Shown: piece by piece, positions 2,591 to 14,891 of the stretch
How positions within the stretch are numbered: position 1 is the stretch's first letter
How the letters are laid out: each line of letters begins with the position of its first letter
Assembly: GCA_019358935.1 (NCBI GenBank)
Contig: JAHHIK010000150.1
Location: 1 to 16,128, forward strand
Origin: Tolypothrix carrinoi HA7290-LM1
GTDB lineage: Bacteria > Cyanobacteriota > Cyanobacteriia > Cyanobacteriales > Nostocaceae
Direction of reading: 5' to 3'
Length of the DNA stretch: 16,128 bases
The notes under the pieces: generated by a model
Told to the model about the DNA's origin: nothing
What the model saw: the letters and a program-made list of their open reading frames with translations, nothing else
Database searches by the model: none
Translations under genes and position numbers: made by a program

Positions 2591-3895
2591 ATGTTAAGTA
2601 TCCCCGTTAATCTGGGTTTACCTCGCGCACCTCGTTTGATAACACCTTTACCTGGACCTTGTGCTGAAGCGATTGTCAAACGCGATCGCGTTGTAACTTC
2701 TCCTTCTTACACTCGCGACTATCCGTTAGTTGTGGCGAGGGGTGAAGGTTGTATGCTCGAAGATGTCGATGGTAATATCTTTCTAGATATGACTGCGGGA
2801 ATTGCTGTCACCGCTACCGGACACGCACACCCGGAAGTTGTCGCCGCAATTCAAGCACAAGCTGCTAACTTAATACACATGTCCGGAACTGATTTCTACT
2901 ACGAACCGATGGTAGAATTAGCAGAGAAGTTAGCTTGCCACGCTCCTTTCCCAAACGGTGCAAAGGTGTTTTTTAGCAACTCTGGGGCAGAATCGAACGA
3001 AGGAGCAATCAAACTAGCTCGATATTACACCGGACGTTCTTCAATTGTGGCATTTTTGGGCGCATTTCACGGACGCACTTATGGAGCGATGTCTTTAACT
3101 GCTTCTAAAACTGTGCAAAGAGCAAACTTTGGTGCTTTGCTTCCGGGAGTAACACACATTCCTTACGGTACTCACGCCAGTGTGGATTATTTAGAGAAAG
3201 AATTATTTTTAACTATATTACCACCAAATGAGGTGGCGTCAATAGTAGTTGAAGCAATTCAAGGTGAAGGTGGTTACATTGTACCTGAAGATGGATTTTT
3301 GCAGAGAATTCGCGATATATGCGATCGCTACGGCATTCTGATGATAGTCGATGAAGTGCAATCGGGGATGGGACGCACCGGTCGGATGTTTGCCATTGAA
3401 CATTGGGGTGTAATGCCGGATATCATAACTACAGCAAAAGGTATCGCTAGCGGTTTACCTTTGGGTGCAATTCTCTCACGTCCAGAAATTATGACTTGGC
3501 AACCTGGTTCTCACGCTACCACATTTGGGGGCAATCCGGTTGCTTGTGCGGCAGGAATTGTCACTTTGCAACTGCTGGAGAACGGTTTGATGGAAAACGC
3601 CGTTAATATGGGAGAATTATTGCAAGCTGGTCTTACTCGGTTGCATGAAAGATTTCCGAGAATGTCTTTACCACGGGGTAAAGGTTTGATGGTAGCGGTA
3701 GATTTATTAGATGAAGAGCAAAGTTTGGATAGAGAATTGCGCGATCGCATTCTTCAAGAAGCTTTCTTACGTGGTTTATTATTACTTGGTTGCGGTAAAG
3801 CCGCAATTCGATTTTGTCCGCCTTTAGTTATCGACAGCGAACAAATTAAAATAGCTTTAGATATTATTGCTGATGTGTTAGTTGAAATGCTTTAA
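2591..3895 (+). CDS. Class-III PLP-dependent aminotransferase (GabT/ArgD/lysine-6-aminotransferase-like)
   Basis: Motifs SGAESNE, FHGRT, EAIQGEGG, DEVQSGMGRTG, TAKGIASG (PLP lysine) and TFGGNP. Confidence 0.95.
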   Translation: MLSIPVNLGLPRAPRLITPLPGPCAEAIVKRDRVVTSPSYTRDYPLVVARGEGCMLEDVDGNIFLDMTAGIAVTATGHAHPEVVAAIQAQAANLIHMSGTDFYYEPMVELAEKLACHAPFPNGAKVFFSNSGAESNEGAIKLARYYTGRSSIVAFLGAFHGRTYGAMSLTASKTVQRANFGALLPGVTHIPYGTHASVDYLEKELFLTILPPNEVASIVVEAIQGEGGYIVPEDGFLQRIRDICDRYGILMIVDEVQSGMGRTGRMFAIEHWGVMPDIITTAKGIASGLPLGAILSRPEIMTWQPGSHATTFGGNPVACAAGIVTLQLLENGLMENAVNMGELLQAGLTRLHERFPRMSLPRGKGLMVAVDLLDEEQSLDRELRDRILQEAFLRGLLLLGCGKAAIRFCPPLVIDSEQIKIALDIIADVLVEML

Positions 3896-3927
3896 GTTTC
3901 GCGCCAAAATGCAAACACTTTCTTAAA

Positions 3928-4091
3928 CTAAGTACAGCTTTGCGTAAAATCGTGGCGAATTGAGGGTTAAAATTTAAACGCAGAGGAGCGCAGAGGTAAG
4001 CGCAAAGGTACGCAAAGAATACGAGCGCAAATTAAGTTTGGCAATAGGATACATTTAAAAACGCTACGCTTTTACGTAAAACTGTACTTAG
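3928..4091. mobile_element. MITE-like element with 22-bp terminal inverted repeats
   Basis: CTAAGTACAGCTTTGCGTAAAA (3928-3949) and TTTTACGTAAAACTGTACTTAG (4070-4091) match at 20/22. Internal CGCAGAG/CGCAAAG repeats. Confidence 0.75.
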
Positions 4092-4124
4092 CCTGTTAGC
4101 GTAAAATTATTCCAACCTTGACTT

Positions 4125-5045
4125 ATGAAACCGGAAATTACCCGCAACCTTTGGGAATTGCTTTGGCAAGAATACAGCGCTAGAGTAAGTTATGCCCGCA
4201 CATACGAGCAAATGATAACTGCCGCTGGTGGTAGTATTGCTAATGACCATATTGCTTTTCGGTCTTTGCGTACAACTGTGGATAGTCCGCACGGTAAGAT
4301 TAACTTGGGGATTGACTACTTGGGGCAATTAGCGGAAGCTTTAGGTTACGAAGCTGTGGGGGAGTACACTTTTAGTGAAACTCATCTTTATGCACGTCAC
4401 TATCGCCATCCACAGCAAGAAGAATTAGACTTACCCAAGTTGTTTATTAGCGAGTTGGTTGTGGATGAATTGCCAGAAGCGATCGCTCAACTCATCCAGC
4501 AAACAATAGCCGGCGACAATTTACTTAATTACTCAGCAATTCTTAATGCATTTGACTCGGATGCACAACGCCTTGTCAAACAATTGCAAAAAATCTTTAC
4601 CCGTCCTTGGCAACCTCCCAAACATTCGATTGTGGAAAAAGTTAACGCTGTTACCCAATATGGAGCTTGGGTATTATTACACGGTTACGCTGTTAACCAT
4701 TTTACAGGATATGTTAACCGCCAAAATACGCCAGAATACCCAGATATAGATACTACCGCTCGTGGTTTGGCTAAATTGGGCGTACCAATGAAAGCTAAAA
4801 TTGAGGGGGATATTGCCACCGGTTTGCGTCAAACCGCTACAGAAGCAGTTACGGAAACAATTCCTGTATTAGATAATATAACCAACGCCGAAATTCAAAT
4901 TCCCTGGACTTACGCTTATTATGAAATTGCCCAGCGTTACATGGTAGAAGTGGAACCGGGTAAGCAAAAGCTTTTTGACGCTTTTTTAGGAAAGAATGCC
5001 CAACAATTGTTTGAAATGACTAGATTAGGGACTGGGGAAAAGTAA
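4125..5045 (+). CDS. DUF1338 family protein (2-oxoadipate dioxygenase/decarboxylase, HglS-like)
   Basis: Motifs NDHIAFRS, PKLFISEL, QYGAW, NHFT, LRQTAT and YYEIAQR, giving the His/His/Glu metal triad. Confidence 0.88.
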   Translation: MKPEITRNLWELLWQEYSARVSYARTYEQMITAAGGSIANDHIAFRSLRTTVDSPHGKINLGIDYLGQLAEALGYEAVGEYTFSETHLYARHYRHPQQEELDLPKLFISELVVDELPEAIAQLIQQTIAGDNLLNYSAILNAFDSDAQRLVKQLQKIFTRPWQPPKHSIVEKVNAVTQYGAWVLLHGYAVNHFTGYVNRQNTPEYPDIDTTARGLAKLGVPMKAKIEGDIATGLRQTATEAVTETIPVLDNITNAEIQIPWTYAYYEIAQRYMVEVEPGKQKLFDAFLGKNAQQLFEMTRLGTGEK

Positions 5046-5056
5046 AAGTTAAGAGT

Positions 5057-5154
5057 TGGGCATTGGTAATTGGTAATTGGTAATTGGTAATCGGCACGCT
5101 CGCATTTATCCCCCTTGTCCTCCTTGTCCTCCTTGTCCCCATTCCCCATTCCCC
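5057..5154. repeat. STRR heptamer tract (GGTAATT)n plus CCTTGTCCT 9-mer/CCCCATT composite repeat
   Basis: Seen directly. 5093-5119 is the perfect reverse complement of 6444-6470. Confidence 0.9.
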
Positions 5155-5177
5155 TCTTTTTTACAGGAGCGATCGCG

Positions 5178-6398
5178 GTGACTGTTGAAATTGACCAGCT
5201 TATAGCAGATTGGAAGAAGAAAGTCAATATTGCAGGTCAAAATCTCCTCGAACTTCAAGAACTACCAACTTATCAGCGACTTTGCGGTGGTTTTGGTTTC
5301 CCTCCAGTCAAGTTGACAGGAATCACTCAAACGCGGGTGACACCAGCACTAGAAGCGATGAACGATTTGTTTCAACACTTCGACTTGTTGGTGCAAACCG
5401 TTGATAAAGCAATCAAGCTACGACAGCAGTTACCGCGTTTTTTGTCAACACAAAAAATTAGCGAAATTGCACAACTTTTAACAGGTGCTTCAATTGAGTT
5501 ACCTGGGGTGCAAACACCGCTAGCACAAAGAGAACTTTTGACTGGTGCAGAAACGACAAATAAAATCACTCCCGCACAGCTACTTGAAGTGATGCAAAAT
5601 GCTTTCTCTGTAGCTAGGGATGCAGTTTTAGCGGTTGACGACGCTTGGACACATTTGGATGTGATGCTGGCAGATGCAGAAGCGCAAATTTTTTCCTTGC
5701 AAAATTTAGCTATATCGGTGAATCAAGATTGCCAAAGTGAATTAATTCAAGCTGCGAGTGCGTTAGCGAAGCTCGCCGAAGGCATCGCTTCTTTACGGCG
5801 AAGTATAGAACAAGACCCTCTAGGAACGAGTGCGGTCTTTCAACAACATGTCCAGCCGATGTTAGCTCAGGTAAAAGCGACTTTAGAAGATTATATCAGA
5901 CAACAAAATCAAATTCGCGAAAAATTAGCGATCGCTCACAATTTGTTACAGCAATTAAAAGAAATTCACGTCAAAGCGATCGCAACTTTTGCGGAATGTC
6001 AGGATAAAGTCTTGGATCACTGTATGTTGCTTCCTCCTTTACCCAAGGAGCAAATTGAAGCGCTTAGACAATGGCTTATGAAGTTAGAAACCAAGTTGGC
6101 TGAAGGTTTAGTGAATCCAATTATCGTTGGTTTAGACAATTGGACTATCAAAGCTAAAGAATATATAGCATCAGAACAACAAGCATATGCAGTTAATAAC
6201 GCTCCCCTACAAACTCGTCGAGAGTTACGCGGAAGATTGGACGCACTCCAGGCAAAAGCGCTGGCACGGCAATTAATTGAAGATCCTATTTTAACTGAAC
6301 TGGCTTTACAAGCGAAGCAACTTCTCTACACTCGTCCAACTCCTTTAAATAAAGCCGCTGAATTGATTACTCAGTATGAAAAACGTTTGAATCGGTAG
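5178..6398 (+). CDS. Conserved all-helical/coiled-coil hypothetical protein, PknG-locus partner, 406 aa
   Basis: Likely start GTG 5178 after AGGAG (5165-5169). L/Q/E/A-rich helical sequence. The C-terminal APLQTRRELRGRLDALQAKA resembles, from memory, the protein encoded upstream of PknG-like kinases in streptomycetes. Confidence 0.8.
   Translation: MTVEIDQLIADWKKKVNIAGQNLLELQELPTYQRLCGGFGFPPVKLTGITQTRVTPALEAMNDLFQHFDLLVQTVDKAIKLRQQLPRFLSTQKISEIAQLLTGASIELPGVQTPLAQRELLTGAETTNKITPAQLLEVMQNAFSVARDAVLAVDDAWTHLDVMLADAEAQIFSLQNLAISVNQDCQSELIQAASALAKLAEGIASLRRSIEQDPLGTSAVFQQHVQPMLAQVKATLEDYIRQQNQIREKLAIAHNLLQQLKEIHVKAIATFAECQDKVLDHCMLLPPLPKEQIEALRQWLMKLETKLAEGLVNPIIVGLDNWTIKAKEYIASEQQAYAVNNAPLQTRRELRGRLDALQAKALARQLIEDPILTELALQAKQLLYTRPTPLNKAAELITQYEKRLNR
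5763..5783 (+). mobile_element. 21-bp SDR5-type small dispersed repeat inserted in a HIP1 site, in frame
   Basis: GCG|TTAGCGAAGCTCGCCGAAGGC|ATCGC. Removing the 21 nt restores GCGATCGC. The insert adds LAKLAEG. Confidence 0.85.
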
Positions 6399-6606
6399 TG
6401 GGGAGTGGGGAGTGGGGACAAGGAAGACAAGGAAGACAAGGAAGACAAGGGGGATAAATGCGAGCGTGCCCATTGCCCAATGCCCAATGCCCATTGCCCA
6501 ATGACGCCAGATGCTTCAAGTCGGCAGAGCCGACGGCAGGTGCTTCAAGCCGGGAAACCCGTCCAACGCACTGCCTCCCCAACGCACTGGCTCCCCCATG
6601 CCCAAT
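6399..6606. repeat. Composite intergenic repeat: GGGGAGT and GACAAGGAA tracts, TGCCCAA STRR tract, and two nested 45-bp structured repeats (6504-6593)
   Basis: The inner 45-mer (6533-6577) splits an outer 45-mer (6504-6532 + 6578-6593). Removing both restores the heptamer tract. Confidence 0.88.
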
Positions 6607-6619
6607 ATAGGAGAGTCTT

Positions 6620-8797
6620 ATGGACGGCGATCGCTGCACAAAAAATGCCTGCACTGGTATCATCGAAGATGGTTACTGTAACGTCTGCGGATTGGCGGCG
6701 GTAAAATTTCAGCCGAGTAGCCAAAGACAAAGCGCAACTATTACAGCAAGAACTTCATCCGTCACCACGGGAACGGGTTCTTCTCCACTAACCAATCGTT
6801 CTAAAGGTTCGCGACGTACTAGTACAACCATCACTAGAAGTACCCGCAAGCACTTGGGCGCGGGGTTAATATCCGTACCCGAACTGCCTTCAACCGAGCC
6901 AGAAAAAGCCATCATCCCTAACCCGATGGTGCCGGAAAATAAACGCTTTTGCGCGAATTGTAATAACCCGCTGCGACGGGAAAAGGGATTTTGCAGCAAG
7001 TGCGGACAGAAGTATTCTTTTATTCCCAGCCTTCAGCCAGGTGATTTAGTTATTGGACAATATGAAGTTAAAGGAGCGATCGCTTATGGTGGTTTAGGTT
7101 GGATTTACTTAGGCTTTGATAAAATTCTATCTCGCTACGTAGTCCTCAAAGGATTGCTCAACACCGAAGACGCATCAAGTGCAGCCGTTGCCGTCGCTGA
7201 AAGACAATTTTTAGCAGCAGTGAAACACCCGAATATTGTGGGGATTTACAACTTCGTTAACCACGGTAACGAAGGTTTCATTATTATGGAATATGTCGGC
7301 GGCAAAACCCTGAGAGAAATTCGCAAGAGTCGCGGACCGCTACCAGTTGCAGAAGCGATCGCCTACATTCACCGCATCCTCAGTGCATTTGCTTATTTAC
7401 ATTCCCTAGGTTTAGTTTACTGCGACTTCAAGCCAGATAACATCATGATTGAAGGCGGCGATGTGAAGTTAATTGACTTAGGTGGTGTCCGCAGAATTGA
7501 TGACCCTTATGGTGATATTTATGGCACAGTCGGCTACAGCGCTCCCGAAGCTGGCGAAGGACCGACCGCTGTATCAGATTTATTTACAGTTGGTAGAACC
7601 TTGGCAGTATTGCTGACTAATATTAAAGGTTTTAACAAGCAACATTTATATACCTTACCCAGTCCTGAAGAAGAACCAATATTTGCCGAACAAGAATCAC
7701 TTTATCGCTTTTTAATAAAAGCCACCGCTGAAAATCCCGACGATCGCTTTCAATCGGCAGATGAAATGGCAGATCAACTGCTGGGTGTGCTGCGGGAAGT
7801 AGTAGCAATTAGCACTAAGATTCCGCGTCCATCTGCGAGTAACGTCTTTAGTGGAGATATGCTAGCGCTGGGTAACGGTAATGACTTTGAACCGATAAAA
7901 GTCGATTATCAGCAATTGCCCGTGCCAATGTTAGACTCAGAAGATTCTGGCTTTAATACAGTCGTAAATGCGAGTGCGATCGCCGATCCGGTGAAACGAG
8001 CAGCCAGTTTAAAAATAGCAGTTAAGCTATGTCCTAATTCTGCCGAAGCATTACTGCGATTGGCAAACAGCCTAATTGACACCTTTGAGTACGACGAGGC
8101 AGAGCATATTATAGCACAATTTGAGGCAAAAGATGCTTGGGACTGGCGAATTTTTTGGTATCGCGGGCGATCGCTAATGCGGCAAGGCAAATCTAAAGAA
8201 GCACAAGCAGCATTCGACCAAGTTTATTTTGACTTACCGGGGGAACTTGCGCCCAAATTGGCGTTAGCGCTTGCGGCAGAACAAGCAGAAAATTATCAAC
8301 TAGCAATTAAGATGTATAACTTGGTATCTCGTACCGAGCCGGGTTATGTATCAGCGGCATTTGGGTTAGCTCGATGTCTTTGTGCTGTTGGCGATCGTAG
8401 CGGTGCGGTAGCAGCTTTAGAAAGAGTACCGCAAAGTTCAAATTTATTTACGCGATCGCGTGTGGAAATTGCCCGAACCCTAATTAATGGCGATCGTTCT
8501 ACCCCCGGAACCAAAGAATTACAAGCTGCTTCCACCGCGATTGAAGCCCTCACTTTAGAAGGAATGGATCGCCATAAATTAACCAAACAACTTTTAGAAA
8601 CAGCCTTAAATCTGCTTACCTCGAAGACAGTAAAAGCCGCTGACGACATGAAAATTTTAGGACAGCCATTTCAAGAAATACATTTAAGAAAAGGATTAGA
8701 AAAAGCCTTGCGTGACATGGCACACCTCGTAACCAAAGAAGAAAAAATTCGCTTAGTTGATGAAGCAAATCGCGTGCGTCCAAGGACTATTTTTTAA
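6620..8797 (+). CDS. pknG: PknG-type Ser/Thr protein kinase (Zn finger, Thr-rich linker, rubredoxin, kinase, TPR)
   Basis: LGAGLISVP...PMVPENKRFCANC...GFCSKCG..YSFIPSLQPGDLVIGQYEVKGAIAYGGLGWIYL, VVLKG, AERQFLA, non-RD loop YCDFKPDN, DLG, GTVGYSAPE and a TPR region (PGELAPKLALA, SAAFGLAR) match the actinobacterial PknG architecture. AGGAG RBS upstream. Confidence 0.92.
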   Translation: MDGDRCTKNACTGIIEDGYCNVCGLAAVKFQPSSQRQSATITARTSSVTTGTGSSPLTNRSKGSRRTSTTITRSTRKHLGAGLISVPELPSTEPEKAIIPNPMVPENKRFCANCNNPLRREKGFCSKCGQKYSFIPSLQPGDLVIGQYEVKGAIAYGGLGWIYLGFDKILSRYVVLKGLLNTEDASSAAVAVAERQFLAAVKHPNIVGIYNFVNHGNEGFIIMEYVGGKTLREIRKSRGPLPVAEAIAYIHRILSAFAYLHSLGLVYCDFKPDNIMIEGGDVKLIDLGGVRRIDDPYGDIYGTVGYSAPEAGEGPTAVSDLFTVGRTLAVLLTNIKGFNKQHLYTLPSPEEEPIFAEQESLYRFLIKATAENPDDRFQSADEMADQLLGVLREVVAISTKIPRPSASNVFSGDMLALGNGNDFEPIKVDYQQLPVPMLDSEDSGFNTVVNASAIADPVKRAASLKIAVKLCPNSAEALLRLANSLIDTFEYDEAEHIIAQFEAKDAWDWRIFWYRGRSLMRQGKSKEAQAAFDQVYFDLPGELAPKLALALAAEQAENYQLAIKMYNLVSRTEPGYVSAAFGLARCLCAVGDRSGAVAALERVPQSSNLFTRSRVEIARTLINGDRSTPGTKELQAASTAIEALTLEGMDRHKLTKQLLETALNLLTSKTVKAADDMKILGQPFQEIHLRKGLEKALRDMAHLVTKEEKIRLVDEANRVRPRTIF

Positions 8798-8798
8798 A

Positions 8799-8914
8799 TA
8801 TAGCAGTCCTAAATAAGAGCGTAAAAACCTCTCTTTATTCTTATCTCTGTGTTCTCTGTGCCTCTGCGGTTAGTTTAAACAATAATATTCACAACTCCTC
8901 CACGGATTGCTATA
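8799..8914. mobile_element. MITE-like element with TATAGCAGTCC / GGATTGCTATA ends
   Basis: 10/11 inverted match of the termini and an internal CTCTGTG/CTCTGCG tract. It fills the kinase-GNAT intergenic space. Confidence 0.6.
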
Positions 8915-8920
8915 GCAAAT

Positions 8921-9487
8921 ATGACAAAGATGAAAACAATTATAGTCCCAACAAAAAAGTTGCAACTAATTGCTTGCACCTTGGAAATTGCCCAAGCAGA
9001 ACTTAGTGATAAATCCAAATTTTCTGAACTACTGAATGCATCTGTACCCGATACTTGGCCCCCTGAATTTAACGACGATGAAACGATTTTATTTATTATA
9101 AATAAATTGCAAGAAGCTCCTGAGCAGTCAGGATGGTGGTCTTGGTACTTTTTGCTAAAAGATGTAGTTACAGCATCTATTCTTATTGGTAATGGTGGTT
9201 TCAAAGGTAAGCCAACATCTGATGGCATCGTCGAAATTGGCTATTCAATTTTACCAGAGTTTCAAAACTTGGGATACGCTACAGAAGCTATCCAAGCACT
9301 TGTATCTTGGGCATTTGCTCATCCAGAAGTTCAGCAAGTTATAGCAGAAACTCTGCCAGAACTCAAAGCTTCACAAAGGGTTTTGGAAAAAAGCCATTTT
9401 ACATATGTTGGACAAGGTTCTGAAGAGGGAACAATTCGTTATCAGCTTTATCGTAATCGCCAAATGAACTTAGGAGCAGCAAATTAA
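8921..9487 (+). CDS. GNAT family N-acetyltransferase (RimJ/RimL-like)
   Basis: IGNGGFKGKP..DGIVEIGYSILPEFQNLGYATEA and ASQRVLEKSHF. The start may be ATG 8930. Confidence 0.92.
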   Translation: MTKMKTIIVPTKKLQLIACTLEIAQAELSDKSKFSELLNASVPDTWPPEFNDDETILFIINKLQEAPEQSGWWSWYFLLKDVVTASILIGNGGFKGKPTSDGIVEIGYSILPEFQNLGYATEAIQALVSWAFAHPEVQQVIAETLPELKASQRVLEKSHFTYVGQGSEEGTIRYQLYRNRQMNLGAAN

Positions 9488-9491
9488 ACTT

Positions 9492-10421
9492 ATGGAATGT
9501 CCAAACTGTGGAACGGTGGTACTGCTTAACGATAAATTTTGTGAAGAATGCGGTACATCCTTAACAACAGTGGGATGTGAAAAATGCGGTGCCGAACCAG
9601 AAGCAATTGATGACGAAGGATTCTGCTCAGTTTGTGGATTTCGTAAAGAAGTTCAGGAGCGACTTGAGATAATTATTGACTCGCGTCTAGCAGGAGTAAG
9701 CGATCGCGGACTCAGACACCACCGCAACGAAGATTACCTTGCCCTGCAAACCGTTAATTCTAACACTCATATCCTTATCGTTTGTGATGGAGTTTCCAGT
9801 TCTAGCAATCCTCATATAGCCGCTCAAACTGCCAGCGAAAGTGCTTCTACAGCATTAATCACCGCCATCAAACAAAAACAAAATCCCGAATCAGCCATCA
9901 AATCAGCCGTAGCTGCCGCCCTCTCCTCCCTATGTAATATTGCTAATACTAAAAGTATCAATTACGAACCACCATCAACCACCATTGTAGCCGCCGTTGT
10001 TCAACAGAACACCGCTACCATAGGTTGGCTCGGTGACAGCCGCGCTTATTGGATTTCAGACAACAATTCCCAACAATTAACCAAAGACGATTCCTGGCTC
10101 AGTGAAGTAGTAGCAGCCGGCGAAATGACACAAGCCCAAGCCAAACAATCTCCCCAAGCAAACGCCATTACCCGCTGGTTAGGCGCAGACATCATTGACG
10201 ACGCCATCCCCTCCATCATCAACTTTACCATTCCCAGTTCCGGATATTTACTGCTGTGTAGCGACGGACTCTGGAACTACACAGAACAACCACAGCAACT
10301 CGCCAACCTCATACAATCCACATCACATACAAATGCCATCACCATCTCCCAATCACTAATCGAATTCGCCCGTCACAGCGGCGGACACGACAACATCACA
10401 GTTGCCCTCCTCTCCCTATAA
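9492..10421 (+). CDS. PP2C/PPM Ser/Thr phosphatase with N-terminal double zinc ribbon
   Basis: CPNC..CEEC..CEKC..CSVC, then DRGLRHHRNED, VCDG, GDSRAY, CSDGLW and GHDNIT. Confidence 0.95.
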   Translation: MECPNCGTVVLLNDKFCEECGTSLTTVGCEKCGAEPEAIDDEGFCSVCGFRKEVQERLEIIIDSRLAGVSDRGLRHHRNEDYLALQTVNSNTHILIVCDGVSSSSNPHIAAQTASESASTALITAIKQKQNPESAIKSAVAAALSSLCNIANTKSINYEPPSTTIVAAVVQQNTATIGWLGDSRAYWISDNNSQQLTKDDSWLSEVVAAGEMTQAQAKQSPQANAITRWLGADIIDDAIPSIINFTIPSSGYLLLCSDGLWNYTEQPQQLANLIQSTSHTNAITISQSLIEFARHSGGHDNITVALLSL

Positions 10422-10444
10422 ACCAAACCCCTTCTCCTCTTCCC

Positions 10445-10583
10445 TCTCTGCGTCCTCCGCGCCTCTGTGAGTCCAGCCCCCGTCTTGGACGCCACTTGCT
10501 TTATGCCGGGAGACCCGTCCACCGCAGTGGCTCCGCTTTCCGTCACGATGGGGGACTGGCGAACCCGAAGGGCGGTTCGTTAA
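10445..10583. repeat. Three-level nested small repeats
   Basis: A CTCTGCG-type repeat is split by a TGAGTCCA...TGGCGAACCCGAAGGG element (10468-10572), itself split by a 45-bp ACGCCAC...GTGGCTC element (10489-10533). Confidence 0.75.
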
Positions 10584-10599
10584 ATCCAAACCAAACACC

Positions 10600-11883
10600 A
10601 TGCCTAACCAATTCAAAGCCGAAGTCTTCCAAAACCAATTTTTACCCCAAGGTGCCAGAGAAGTTCACGCCATCATGACCGTCACCGTCCAAGCCGGTGA
10701 CAGCGTAGCTACAACCCCCAACAACGGCAGACTATTCGGTATTATTTGCGACACATCCGGCTCAATGGGAGGTAAAAAGATTCACGCGGCAAGAGATGCG
10801 ATGGTCAAAGTCGTAAATCTCCTGCCAGACGATGCCTACTTCTTCATCATCACAGGTGCTAGTAAAGCCAGCGTCATATGTCCAGTGTCAAAAGCTACAC
10901 CAGATAAAAAAACGTGGGCGATCGCCGCCATCAAAGAGATTTATGCTAGCGGCGGTACACTCATGTCAACTTGGTTGAATGAAGCTTTAGAACAATTCAA
11001 CAAAATGCCAAACGCCGTTCGTCAAGCATTACTACTCACAGACGGACAAAACGACGATTCAGACGAATTTAAACTCAATAAAATTCTCCAAGCTTGTGAA
11101 GGAGTCTTTCAATGTGATTGTCGAGGCGTCGGTACTGATTGGCGAGTTGCACAACTCCAAAAAATTGCTAATAAACTGCTGGGTACAACTGACATCATCC
11201 CCAACGCCGAGATGATTGAAGCTGACTTTCGAGCGATTTTAGAGAAAGCCATGAGCAAAGATGTCAGCGATGTCGCTATGCGCTTGTGGACTCCCCAAGG
11301 TGCAAAAATACTTTTTTGCAAACAAGTTAGTCCCGATATTGTAGACCTTACACATCGCGCCAAAATTGTCAAGACCCAAGTCGTAGATTATCCCACCGGC
11401 GCTTGGGGAAAACAAGAATCCCGTGATTACCACTTCTGCATCGAAGTTAATCCGGGCAACGTTGGTGATGAAATGTTAGCCGGTCGCGCAAGTTTAGTTT
11501 ACACAAACAACGGTGTAGAAAGCAAAATTGTTGAGGCACGCATTCTGGCAACTTGGACTGACGACGATGCTAAATCGACCAAAATCGACAGACGAGTTGC
11601 CCACTACACCGGACAAGCAGAACTTGCCCAATCGATTCAGCAAGGATTAGAAGCGCGTGCCAAAGGTAATATTGAAATCGCCACCGCCAAGTTAGGCAAA
11701 GCAGTGAAACTTGCCCATGAATCTGGTAACGAAGCAACAGCTAAACTCTTAAAAACTGTAGTTGATATAGAAGATGCACCCACAGGAACAGTGCGATTAA
11801 AAAAAGCTGTTGCTAAAGAAGACGAAATGGCGTTGGAAACTCGTTCTACCAAAACTACCCGCATTCAAAAACCACAAAGTTAG
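10600..11883 (+). CDS. von Willebrand factor A (vWA) domain protein
   Basis: MIDAS motif DTSGS, GGT and LLTDG. Helical C-terminal region ending LETRSTKTTRI. Confidence 0.93.
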   Translation: MPNQFKAEVFQNQFLPQGAREVHAIMTVTVQAGDSVATTPNNGRLFGIICDTSGSMGGKKIHAARDAMVKVVNLLPDDAYFFIITGASKASVICPVSKATPDKKTWAIAAIKEIYASGGTLMSTWLNEALEQFNKMPNAVRQALLLTDGQNDDSDEFKLNKILQACEGVFQCDCRGVGTDWRVAQLQKIANKLLGTTDIIPNAEMIEADFRAILEKAMSKDVSDVAMRLWTPQGAKILFCKQVSPDIVDLTHRAKIVKTQVVDYPTGAWGKQESRDYHFCIEVNPGNVGDEMLAGRASLVYTNNGVESKIVEARILATWTDDDAKSTKIDRRVAHYTGQAELAQSIQQGLEARAKGNIEIATAKLGKAVKLAHESGNEATAKLLKTVVDIEDAPTGTVRLKKAVAKEDEMALETRSTKTTRIQKPQS

Positions 11884-11940
11884 TCAATAGTCAATAGTCA
11901 AATTTTCAAATAAAGGACAAATGACAAATGACAAATGACA
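11881..11940. repeat. STRR heptamer tracts (TAGTCAA)n and (GACAAAT)n
   Basis: Seen directly. The second tract supplies the ATG at 11928. Confidence 0.85.
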
Positions 11941-12728
11941 TCTCTACCTATAAATGTCTCAAAGGTCACGAATCAACCGAATCCGATTATTGTTCAGAGT
12001 GTGGGGTGAAAATTCTCGGTGTAGGTGAAGCGATCGCCTCACCTGTACCACAAAACATAACTCTCGAAACTTGCCCAGCTTGCAGCGTTCAGCGCGAACT
12101 TAACAGCGGCGACTTTTGCGAAATTTGCGGTTACAACTTCGTCACCCTAGTTCATGGGGAAGTGCCCATTGTTGAGGGGATGAGGGGACAGGGGGGACAG
12201 GGGGGACAGGGGGGACAGGGGGGACAAGGGGGACAAGGGGGACAAGGGGGACAAGGGAGACAAGAGGACAAAGGTGAATTTGCTTCGTTGTCTTCCCCCT
12301 CCTCCGTGTCTCCCCATCCCCCCCTCTCCCCCTCTCCCCCTCCCCCCATCCCCCTCACCTGGGAACTTGTTGTCACAATCGATCCATCCCTACGGCATCC
12401 AGAAAGCCCAGAAGCGCCAACAAATCAACAGGCTATTGCATTTCGCCTAAACAAGTCAAATAACCTCATCGGTCGTAATAGCCAAGCTAGAGGAATTGAA
12501 CCAGAAATTGCTTTGGATTTTGACAATGCTGTTTCCCACCGTCACGCTTTGTTAAACCTTCAGTCAGACGGTTCTTTAACTCTGCGCGATATTAATTCTT
12601 CTAACGGGACTAAGCTTAACGGAGTGGAATTGAAGCCAATGGTGGATGCACCTCTACAAGATGGAGACGAATTTACTTTAGGACACTGGACTCGAATTGC
12701 TGTCAAAGTTATCCACCAATCTTTATAA
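11928..12728 (+). CDS. FHA domain protein with N-terminal zinc ribbons and a repeat-derived GGQ/Pro-rich linker
   Basis: CLKGH..CSEC and CPAC..CEIC. FHA motifs IGR, VSHRHA and DINSSNGTKLNG. Confidence 0.93.
   Translation: MTNDISTYKCLKGHESTESDYCSECGVKILGVGEAIASPVPQNITLETCPACSVQRELNSGDFCEICGYNFVTLVHGEVPIVEGMRGQGGQGGQGGQGGQGGQGGQGGQGRQEDKGEFASLSSPSSVSPHPPLSPSPPPPIPLTWELVVTIDPSLRHPESPEAPTNQQAIAFRLNKSNNLIGRNSQARGIEPEIALDFDNAVSHRHALLNLQSDGSLTLRDINSSNGTKLNGVELKPMVDAPLQDGDEFTLGHWTRIAVKVIHQSL
12174..12356. repeat. 183-bp G-rich/C-rich quasi-palindromic repeat element in frame within the FHA gene
   Basis: About eight 9-bp GGGGGACA(G/A) units followed by CCCCCTCT/CCCCAT tracts. The ends GAGGGGATG and CATCCCCCTC are near-complementary. 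Length is 61 codons. Confidence 0.85.
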
Positions 12729-12979
12729 GTTTCGTGGATTAAATAAAATGCAAAACTTTTATTTTGTCGGGTGCATTATTCATAACTACGAGACTCTTTT
12801 CTTTTGTAGGGTGCGTTATGCATAACGCAACGCCAGTTGCTACAACGTTCGTGACCTCACGAGCGGGTTCGCCACTTCGACGGGACCCAAACCGACACCG
12901 CGCCCGTGGACTCACCGCAACGCACTGGCTCCCCTACGGGACTCAAATTGCTGTCAAAGTTACCCACCAATCTTTATAA
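12688..12979 (+). repeat. 41-bp direct repeat of the FHA gene 3' end (12688-12728 and 12939-12979) enclosing nested REP/SDR-like repeats
   Basis: The copies are 39/41 identical. Removing 12830-12931 restores the perfect 30-bp palindrome GTAGGGTGCGTTATGCATAACGCACCCTAC. Confidence 0.9.
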
Positions 12980-12990
12980 AGATAAAAAAT

Positions 12991-14370
12991 ATGAGTAAGA
13001 TAATCTCAGCCTCAAGTAAAGCAATTAAAAAACTCAATACTCCACAACTGCTTCAAGGTGGCTTGTACTTAACTTGGGCTACAAGTTTACTAGTATTAGT
13101 TTCTACTATTAGCGGCATCCAAGGACAACGGCACGCTATTAACACAATCGGTAAAGATGCAACACCGAGTATTACTACTGCCCAACGTCTCAAAGATGCA
13201 GCAGCGGGTATGGATGCCTACATTGCTAAAGAACTGCTATTACCATCTGGACAAAACCAAGATGCTGTTAAGGGTTACGAGGAGCGATACGAGAAACTAA
13301 CTCAAAGACTGGTTGCTGCTGCGGAAAGTATCAGCTACGGAGATAAAGAGCGAAAACCTATCGAAACTTTGCAACTAGAATTAGGTAACTACATCGCCAA
13401 GATTCAGCAGGCGCGTGATTTTCACGAACGCGGTGATACTAATAATATGCTGGTTGCTTATCGAAGTGCTGCGGAAATTATGGATGAGAAATTATTACCA
13501 GCAACCGACGCACTGGATAAGGTGAATGTAGACGCTTTAAATGTTACATACAATAAGGAAAAATTTGACTCTGGGAAATCGCTATTTTTTATAGTGATTT
13601 CTGGTGTTGCACTAATCAGCGTATTAGTAGGGTTACAAATATTTCTCAGTCAGAGGACTCGTCGCACCTTCAATCCTATGCTGTTGGCAGCGAGTGCGAT
13701 CGCTATTGCTTTTTTAAATTACACAACAGGTGCGTTTCTTTCTGCTTCCCAAAATCTCAGAATTGCTAAAGAAGATGCTTTCACTTCTATGCACGCATTG
13801 CGACAAGCCCGCGCTTTAGGTTACATCGCCAATGCCGCTCAAAGTCGCTATTTGTTTGATTCGGCTTTTGCTTTGAATCACGAACAGGCTTTTTTTAATA
13901 CTATAGCTAAAATTGCCAAACCGCCTGATGGTGACACTTTTGAAACAGTCGCAGCATCAGCATCAGCATCAGGCTACAAACCGAATAATTTCACAGGCTT
14001 GTTAGCTGACCAACTAAAAAATATTACCTTTGCTGGCGAACGAGAAGCAACAGTAAAAAACTTGACAACTTTAGGCGCTTATGTTGCTATTGATAAACAG
14101 ATTCGCCAACTCGAACGCAGTGGAAAACATACTGAAGCGATCGCACTTTGTTTAGGTAGTCAACCAGGACAATCTAATTGGGCATTTGATGAATTCAGAT
14201 TGAAAGCTAATCAAAAAACTTTTGATATTAACCAAGCAGCCTTCGACAAAGCAATTAAGCAAGGCTTTAAAGATGTGGATGGTTTTGAGTTTACCACCCC
14301 AGTAGCGCTGAGTGCGATCGCTCTTTTAACTTTATTTGGATTGCTCCCACGCTTGAAAGAGTATGCTTAA
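12991..14370 (+). CDS. GlnX-like membrane protein (4 TM helices, two extracytoplasmic helical-bundle domains)
   Basis: Hydrophobic segments at the N-terminus, a central pair joined by the basic loop QRTRRTFNPMLL, and a C-terminal helix ending GLLPRLKEYA. The topology and these motifs resemble actinobacterial GlnX from memory, and the gene lies in a pknG locus. Confidence 0.7.
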   Translation: MSKIISASSKAIKKLNTPQLLQGGLYLTWATSLLVLVSTISGIQGQRHAINTIGKDATPSITTAQRLKDAAAGMDAYIAKELLLPSGQNQDAVKGYEERYEKLTQRLVAAAESISYGDKERKPIETLQLELGNYIAKIQQARDFHERGDTNNMLVAYRSAAEIMDEKLLPATDALDKVNVDALNVTYNKEKFDSGKSLFFIVISGVALISVLVGLQIFLSQRTRRTFNPMLLAASAIAIAFLNYTTGAFLSASQNLRIAKEDAFTSMHALRQARALGYIANAAQSRYLFDSAFALNHEQAFFNTIAKIAKPPDGDTFETVAASASASGYKPNNFTGLLADQLKNITFAGEREATVKNLTTLGAYVAIDKQIRQLERSGKHTEAIALCLGSQPGQSNWAFDEFRLKANQKTFDINQAAFDKAIKQGFKDVDGFEFTTPVALSAIALLTLFGLLPRLKEYA

Positions 14371-14492: not shown

Positions 14493-14891
14493 ATGAAAAA
14501 AATTATTTCCGCTAGTTTAGTAGTTTTGGCTGCTACTACTGGTTTTTTACTCAACAATCAGCCTGTTCAAGCTCATCGACGTTACAATTATGGTGGGTAT
14601 CCCTACTACCATCGCTATCGTTATCGTATAGAGCCAATAAGATACTGCTTTCCTACAACTCAATGGCTGGTTGACGAAGACCCCGCTTATCACCCTCAAG
14701 CTTACTCCGACGGCTACCGCCAAGGACAGACGAGCGCTAAAAAAGGTCAAAAGTACAAACCGCGTACTGCTGGGGGCGAATTTGCTCGCGGTTTCGATGA
14801 TGGTTATTACGGAAAGCAATTTGCCGGTCAAAAAAACATTGTTCCAAACGTTATTAAACCATACACTACAACAGAATGTAGTTTGTATTGA
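14493..14891 (+). CDS. Small secreted hypothetical protein
   Basis: Sec-type signal MKKIISASLVVLAATTGFLLNNQPVQA, a Tyr/Arg-rich segment, YSDGYRQG and FARGFDDGY motifs, and two Cys. GGAG upstream. Confidence 0.75.
   Translation: MKKIISASLVVLAATTGFLLNNQPVQAHRRYNYGGYPYYHRYRYRIEPIRYCFPTTQWLVDEDPAYHPQAYSDGYRQGQTSAKKGQKYKPRTAGGEFARGFDDGYYGKQFAGQKNIVPNVIKPYTTTECSLY

Follow-up and report, generated by a model that had tools for sequence, protein, structure and literature searches.

What might a protein kinase of the mycobacterial PknG type be signalling to in a cyanobacterium? The question is raised by a run of genes on contig JAHHIK010000150.1 of Tolypothrix carrinoi HA7290-LM1 (16,128 nucleotides, called the window here, which is the whole contig of a 7.96-Mb genome that is 99.65% complete). 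A preliminary description made from the sequence had read there six co-oriented, intact genes, encoding a helical protein, PknG, a PP2C phosphatase, a vWA protein, an FHA protein and a GlnX-like receptor, together with a GNAT acetyltransferase gene. All seven open reading frames (ORFs) were indeed found to be open and on the + strand, at the coordinates of Table 1, and domain searches recovered PknG_rubred, PknG_TPR, PP2C, vWA and FHA as that description had foreseen. We propose that the six core genes probably form a transmembrane phospho-threonine switch in which GlnX activates PknG, the vWA protein is phosphorylated in its C-terminal domain, the FHA protein clamps on to that domain and the PP2C phosphatase resets the system. 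The output is most likely not the control of 2-oxoglutarate dehydrogenase by GarA, as had already been suspected: genome-wide, no protein scored above the cut-off for OdhI (best score against NF041660 41 bits, cut-off 200) and no SucA was found with TIGR00239, in searches whose controls responded.

The kinase and its phylogeny

The kinase scored above cut-off with PF16919, PF00069 and PF16918, and matched M. tuberculosis PknG (2PZI) at 474 bits over residues 79-725. In a kinase-domain tree of 39 rows, with 8 same-genome paralogues as outgroup, the 31 PknG rows fell on one side of a branch with 100/99 support, and on these comparisons the kinase is an orthologue of PknG, as first described. Motifs of the kinase, the PP2C phosphatase, the vWA MIDAS (metal ion-dependent adhesion site) and the FHA domain all appear intact by sequence; those of the kinase are YCDFKPDN at 267 and DLG at 286, of the non-RD type, and the enzyme is predicted to be active and to autophosphorylate. 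Its N-terminus bears an additional zinc ribbon (residues 6-24), followed by a Ser/Thr-rich linker (residues 30-78, with 23 Ser/Thr), and this extra ribbon is kept in the cassette kinases and was not found in the three Mycobacteriales kinases compared.

Within the same tree the diderm group had 95/88 and the cyanobacteria 97/91 support, and a full-length kinase tree of 61 rows placed a long, fully supported branch between diderm and actinobacterial kinases. An actinobacterial donor for the diderm cassette was considered, but monophyly of the actinobacterial kinases reached 65/28 when the kinase-domain tree was rooted, which makes it a three-way split, so that no donor is named. Long residence in the cyanobacteria, which the preliminary description had argued from internal HIP1 sites, is supported by the clades in the kinase trees. 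The locus has 14 HIP1 sites, where 9,193 bp of the genome contain 9.06 on average, and since 9.6% of 781 genome windows hold at least 14, this density is host-like and not exceptional. The GC content of the locus is also host-like.

A receptor of a separate GlnX subfamily

The last gene of the cassette, described beforehand as GlnX-like, matched NF058618 at 281 bits (cut-off 250) and gave no match at E<=0.01 to the mycobacterial equivalog NF041460, which is present in the library. Hydrophobic segments begin the list of its features, being four in number (25, 197, 231 and 434) with the weakest in third place (1.55, family mean 1.84), and it has a C-terminal motif of the R[LI]xEY type that is found in 61 of 62 GlnX proteins. 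The GlnX tree separates two subfamilies across a branch with a support of 100. Type A holds the Mycobacteriales and most copies linked to a solute-binding protein (SBP), and type B holds all 31 diderm rows together with Nonomuraea, locus L096, the second copy of L135 and two plasmid orphans. The orphans (L083, 9896-11266, and L082, 9917-11314) are type B receptors without a kinase cassette in Streptomyces and Embleya plasmid records.

A dedicated binding protein was looked for with a hidden Markov model (HMM) of the cassette SBPs in diderm loci that had a full glnX gene followed by 1.2 kb or more of sequence, two duplicate loci having been dropped, and neither the window nor any of the 58 loci gave a match; among high-GC loci showing glnX, the helical gene (hel) and pknG, an SBP gene was present in 21 of 26. 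The only diderm matches of this model came from two other loci, in which a glutamate-receptor-like SBP/ion-channel gene lies divergent from the helical gene (L030, 94-1233, and L055, 50-1195, both on the - strand).

The vWA protein as a likely substrate

The predicted structure of the vWA protein (predicted local distance difference test, pLDDT, 92.3) found Catenulispora 4FX5 first in a Foldseek search (TM 0.93), and also matched archaeal ArnB (8S05, E 1.9e-23, TM 0.67), vWA2 (5A8J, E 2.1e-20) and Sec23/24. According to PMC6509490, 4FX5 shares its tripartite fold with ArnB, and ArnB is phosphorylated on threonines of the C-terminal bundle. The MIDAS residues D51, S53, S55, T120 and D148 were invariant among 75 homologues, and identity to the high-GC homologues was 43-52%, suggesting that the protein evolves slowly.

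The supplement of PMC9600765 lists the S. rimosus orthologue, SRIM_014225, as phosphorylated in vivo at three sites that are localised with a probability of 0.999-1.0 (pT416, pT431 and pT433), and S. rimosus PknG as phosphorylated in its N-terminal region; the text of that paper places the vWA protein among the phosphoproteins of the SII phase, the entry to stationary phase and starvation. In the window protein the three sites, mapped by eye from the peptide windows, correspond to T380, T395 and T397, which are kept in 72, 53 and 73 of the 75 homologues respectively. The vWA protein is likely to be a substrate of PknG at these three residues, PknG being the kinase that we infer. Its Thr-rich tail, in which S416, T419 and R421 are 96-98% conserved, is likely to be a further candidate site.

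The FHA reader and the phosphatase

The FHA protein consists of two zinc ribbons, a linker lengthened by short tandem repeats and then the FHA domain, in which the residues expected to bind phospho-threonine (pThr) can be assigned (G182/R183, S203, H206 and N226/G227). It was considered as a GarA/OdhI protein and ruled out, as it scored 22 bits with NF041660, far below the cut-off of 200; the ETT motif was found in 1 of 84 homologues. ArnA and ArnB are described in PMC12852372 as passing from a loose zinc-finger docking to a tight FHA-pThr state, and by analogy the binding of the FHA protein to the vWA protein is predicted to depend on phosphorylation. The PP2C phosphatase has the metal-binding aspartate motifs of its family.

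The helical protein

No Pfam, NCBIfam or PADLOC family matched the helical protein, which belongs to an unnamed family of 1,983 clusters at 50% identity. Its predicted structure is all-helical (pLDDT 95.6) and its top structural matches by VIA-align were the spectrin-like repeats of EzrA (4UY3, Z 13.0, root mean square deviation 4.3 over 192 aligned residues, and 4UXV, Z 11.1), which are borderline values at a level usual among helical bundles. Atlas gave an EzrA cluster at 0.83, as a lead only, and Foldseek gave no match at E<=0.001 with the helical model (E 0.73 in the comparison for a spectrin-like rod of tandem three-helix bundles). EzrA has a membrane anchor at its N-terminus. The helical protein has neither such an N-terminal anchor nor a match to Pfam EzrA, and hydropathy showed no hydrophobic segment in it, so that it is read as a soluble rod.

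In most loci the helical gene adjoins pknG, and the Mycobacteriales loci that were fetched lack it along with the genes for PP2C, vWA and FHA; on this ground it was placed in the output module, where the rod may perhaps serve as a scaffold or adaptor. Prediction of a complex between the helical protein and PknG residues 135-725, with paired alignments of 65 rows, scored 0.00 in two runs, which counts neither for nor against contact. Two homologues of the helical protein (P0130 and P0213) are fusions with an N-terminal M48 peptidase or an adenylate/guanylate cyclase domain, and in two Acidobacteriota loci (L058, 3-491, and L066, 7114-8763 on the + strand) a co-oriented AAA ATPase gene lies directly upstream of the helical gene.

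Conservation and distribution of the cassette

A GTDB scan with the kinase, in which the closest named relatives of the genome were Tolypothrix-like Nostocales, yielded 404 confirmed stretches, and the locus counts given here refer to the best 80 of these. All six core genes stood together in 46 of the 80 loci, so that their clustering is not due to chance and the expected joint conservation was borne out; in 24 loci one flank or both were short. The GNAT gene fared otherwise, being present in just 9 of the 80, and is an accessory outside the core set; the copy in the window has a GC content at third codon positions of 0.26 and zero HIP1 sites. Gene order is mostly that of the window, with circular permutation in two Pseudanabaena-type loci, and in one genome that was checked hel-pknG and vwa-fha-glnX lie apart from each other.

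Hosts included Nostocales, Microcoleus, Pseudanabaena, Acidobacteriota and Armatimonadota, and six-gene sets were also present in further Acidobacteriota and Armatimonadota genomes. The setting first described, a cyanobacterial one, is therefore real but not peculiar to the cyanobacteria, since the Acidobacteriota and Armatimonadota copies belong, on sequence comparison, to the same diderm clade. The spread is patchy. PknG was found in 14 of 41 relatives, one copy having internal stops. Within the phylum, 6 of 301 genomes have a GlnX of full length (the source genome is counted in both figures), as do 2 of the 251 sampled around a genome of the Acidobacteriota and 10 of the 251 sampled around one of the Armatimonadota, each central genome being counted; the genomes in these samples are kin and not independent draws. 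In four related Nostocales (L008, L010, L037 and L039) the cassette stands just after the pilM-to-pilQ operon, probably through one insertion event, a neighbourhood that we note because ArnA and ArnB control motility. A locus labelled Acetobacteraceae (L011), with a kinase 80% identical to the cyanobacterial one, is probably a binning error.

The actinobacterial side was drawn from metagenome loci, PLSDB records and the tables of one paper. The 80 metagenome loci, picked by likeness to the Nonomuraea vWA protein, have 65-75% GC and were taken as actinobacterial because of this GC content and their position in the trees. The usual order in SBP-bearing high-GC loci is glnX-sbp-hel-pknG-pp2c-vwa-fha, and in Nonomuraea (L081) the six genes are arranged as they are in the window, with an SBP_bac_3 gene after them. 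A longer streptomycete locus, which the preliminary description had mentioned, exists as S. rimosus SRIM_014200-014230, listed in the supplement of PMC9600765 as a hypothetical protein, a glnH-type SBP, a second hypothetical protein, PknG, DZR-PP2C, vWA and DZR-FHA; from position and size we take the two hypotheticals to be GlnX and the helical protein. The three Mycobacteriales loci fetched were two short glnX-glnH-pknG loci and one lone pknG, with no vWA, PP2C, FHA or helical gene.

Relation to described systems

With the GlnH-GlnX-PknG-GarA/OdhI pathway of Mycobacterium and Corynebacterium (treated in PMC6069109, PMC9769921, PMC8546545 and bioRxiv 10.64898/2026.07.02.735984) the cassette shares an orthologue of PknG that combines rubredoxin, kinase and TPR domains and carries an N-terminal linker rich in Ser/Thr, a four-transmembrane GlnX-family receptor and a downstream FHA protein. 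It differs in lacking GlnH, GarA/OdhI and SucA, in a GlnX from a separate subfamily, and in adding a PP2C phosphatase, an ArnB-like vWA protein, a zinc-ribbon FHA protein, a helical rod and the zinc ribbon of PknG. The actinomycete locus of seven genes (S. rimosus, Nonomuraea L081 and the Catenulispora vWA protein 4FX5) contains the same six genes but has in addition an SBP_bac_3 lipoprotein and, usually, a type A GlnX placed first. In print we found the S. rimosus locus as rows of a proteomics table only, not described as a system, and the parts of PMC9600765 consulted do not discuss it.

The nearest analogue of the output module is the archaeal ArnA/ArnB pair, a starvation switch (Sulfolobus acidocaldarius; PDB 8S05 and 5A8J), rather than the TerY-P triad to which the preliminary description had turned. 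Common to both are a vWA domain, beta-sandwich and Thr-rich C-terminal helical domain in one protein, the position of its gene beside one for a zinc-ribbon-linker-FHA protein, and C-terminal threonines that are phosphorylated (in the Streptomyces orthologue). The window reader however has two zinc ribbons, the cassette uses PknG and PP2C where Sulfolobus uses ArnC/ArnD and PP2A, and it is wired to a membrane receptor, with a motility output not known for it.

The literature that we searched, which covered few subscription papers, held no account of the cassette as a system nor of a cyanobacterial GlnX. The earlier opinion that the system is not known to be characterised in cyanobacteria thus stands; a cyanobacterial kinase of this type has already appeared in print, PMC8546545 naming Calothrix and Ktedonobacter as bearers of PknG homologues that contain Rdx, and the three-gene GlnH-GlnX-PknG operon is treated in PMC6069109, PMC9769921 and the bioRxiv paper cited above. 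What is new here is a diderm form that has no GlnH and a GlnX subfamily of its own, together with phosphosite support at the level of residues.

Proposed mechanism and alternative readings

In the switch that we favour, GlnX would respond to an outside cue by a movement of its two periplasmic four-helix bundles, no dedicated GlnH taking part. GlnX would hold and activate PknG through the TPR domain of the kinase, a coupling shown genetically in actinobacteria, and its C-terminal R[LI]xEY tail may dock there. PknG would autophosphorylate its own Ser/Thr-rich linker and phosphorylate the C-terminal threonines of the vWA protein. The FHA protein would then pass from loose docking by its zinc ribbons to a tight clamp of its FHA domain on pThr, as ArnA does on ArnB, the PP2C phosphatase would reverse the phosphorylation, and the helical rod may act as a scaffold for this module. 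The switch would most likely signal nutrient or growth state to a partner, with no action on 2-oxoglutarate dehydrogenase. If so, it names a second class of PknG substrate, of which three residues have already been seen phosphorylated in Streptomyces, and joins two pathways that have been studied separately, the actinobacterial GlnX-PknG and the archaeal ArnA/ArnB; a few percent of cyanobacteria would thereby gain a receptor-kinase pathway that we did not find studied, and the GlnH-free diderm form would be a natural test of whether GlnX can sense a ligand alone, a possibility raised in PMC9769921. It is also conceivable, if rather doubtful, that PknG originally had as its output the vWA/FHA pair, a bacterial equivalent of archaeal ArnB/ArnA and of the Sec23/24 core, and was rewired to the control of 2-oxoglutarate dehydrogenase through GarA only later, in Mycobacteriales, with the GlnH-free diderm GlnX as a directly liganded four-helix-bundle receptor for a soluble Ser/Thr kinase and the phosphorylated vWA protein and spectrin-like rod forming a switchable, membrane-associated scaffold.

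Several observations weigh against the proposed switch. Ten of the 80 loci have long flanks and yet miss at least one core gene, and some copies of the cassette are broken (G012 and L046). The vWA protein is only 16% identical to ArnB and the EzrA match of the rod is borderline. The phosphosites are Streptomyces data, which carry no assignment to PknG and were transferred by eye, the cyanobacterial copies being known from sequence and models; T120, T147 and T337 of the vWA protein are as conserved as the three mapped threonines, and a phosphosite is therefore not marked out by its conservation only. A zinc-ribbon tag shared by the kinase, the phosphatase and the FHA protein, whose ribbons have a similar pattern, was considered and rejected, as an HMM of the first FHA ribbon was unspecific and did not single out the other two genome-wide. 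Finally, the genome holds four SBP_bac_3 genes, and a binding protein could come from elsewhere.

This last point leads to the reading in which amino-acid sensing has been kept, GlnX borrowing an SBP from elsewhere and an enzyme bound by the FHA protein tuning carbon and nitrogen metabolism in the manner of GarA. In actinobacteria GlnH binds Asp/Glu and signals via GlnX (PMC6069109, PMC9769921), type B GlnX does have an adjoining SBP in Nonomuraea and L096, and the divergent glutamate-receptor-like genes of L030 and L055 could be read in the same sense. The obvious donor in the window genome would be the one stand-alone SBP_bac_3 gene, beside rplT, which had the highest score with the cassette-SBP model (136 bits), the other three being fused to ABC permeases. 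As a dedicated GlnX partner it was rejected, however, since it is present in 39 of the 41 relatives against 14 for PknG and so does not track the cassette, and with an FHA protein that lacks the ETT motif and the GarA/OdhI score, and with the SucA target missing, we regard this reading as possible but distinctly less than likely. A sensor of envelope, ion or membrane stress, in which the EzrA-like rod and a vWA protein of the Sec23/24 kind would build a membrane scaffold under the control of phosphorylation, is unlikely. The EzrA likeness by VIA-align and Atlas would suit it, as would the surroundings of the orphan receptors (KdpD, TrkA-N and Na/H exchanger genes, thus K+/Na+ transport, around that of L083 and an amino-acid-permease-family gene beside that of L082), but these are two independent loci only, no stress or ion gene recurs beside the diderm cassettes, and the rod has no membrane anchor and a weak fold match.

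Least probable, and indeed very unlikely, is a role in anti-phage defence or conflict after the manner of TerY-P, the analogy drawn at the outset. A Ser/Thr kinase, PP2C and vWA triad is present, such triads act in defence according to PMC10542128, and the patchy spread within the phylum would fit. The kinase is however PknG, the vWA architecture is another, and there is an extra receptor and FHA protein and no nuclease or toxic effector. The vWA protein had no PADLOC match at E<=0.01, the matches of kinase and PP2C were generic, and no TerY-P-labelled model was among the matches listed, the TerY-P content of the library being unconfirmed. No known defence system recurs among 118 neighbouring proteins, a count made without a control set; at 1e-10 PADLOC matched 9 of them (a TPR protein, two ABC ATPases, an amylase, two Uma2 proteins and three others). 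Neither the vWA protein nor its alignment found a relative in viral contigs, its sole PLSDB match was an 11.9-Mb Nonomuraea record, and the slow evolution of the vWA protein also speaks against a conflict system.

Layout of the locus and its neighbours

The intergenic gaps, in gene order, are 221, 123, 4, 178, 44 and 262 nucleotides, and scans for promoters and terminators of the locus gave chance level only (15 against 14.7, and 6 against 10.4). The search for RNA returned a single metatranscriptome, from soil, which contained 0.06 of the words; contigs of a relative about 92-93% alike span the whole of pknG and cover hel, vWA, FHA and glnX in part, where carry-over of DNA is possible.

Table 1. 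Genes of the cassette and the accessory GNAT gene, in window coordinates
Feature	Position	Strand	Length, domains or basis of the call
Helical protein	5178-6398	+	406 amino acids, GTG start; no named family
PknG	6620-8797	+	PknG_rubred, Pkinase and PknG_TPR, all above cut-off
GNAT acetyltransferase, RimJ-like, accessory	8921-9487	+	domain search
PP2C phosphatase, double zinc ribbon	9492-10421	+	DZR and PP2C domains
ArnB-like vWA protein	10600-11883	+	vWA and VWA_3_C; MIDAS vWA, beta-sandwich and C-terminal helical domain
ArnA-like FHA reader	11928-12728	+	FHA domain and two zinc ribbons
GlnX-family four-transmembrane receptor, type B (diderm)	12991-14370	+	NF058618 and hydropathy

Short tandem or dispersed repeats occur in several of the larger gaps and in the FHA linker. 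Tandem repeats of 9 and 7 nucleotides lie at 12173-12281, 6394-6500 and 5057-5157, one array being within the coding linker of the FHA protein, where it is translated as (GGQ)n. Between fha and glnX there is a 251-nucleotide insertion (12729-12979), which contains a 44-nucleotide duplication of the end of fha and is missing from the RNA contig of the relative.

Upstream of the cassette, 2591-5045 on the + strand holds a class III aminotransferase gene (NF004426, above cut-off) adjoining a gene of the HGLS/DUF1338 family, a pair that we presume may serve lysine or 2-oxoadipate catabolism; they were considered as members of the cassette and rejected, as they adjoin it in just 3 of the 80 loci. 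The gene directly 3' of glnX (14493-14891, + strand) encodes a protein of 132 amino acids that starts like a signal peptide and matches no family; it was seen in four close relatives only. Near the start of the window, an ORF at 1670-1981 on the + strand is made up of a 21-nucleotide tandem repeat, read as (VMLIRRS)n, and is probably no gene, and the caspase-domain ORF upstream of it (912-1673) could be just the end part of a gene of greater length.

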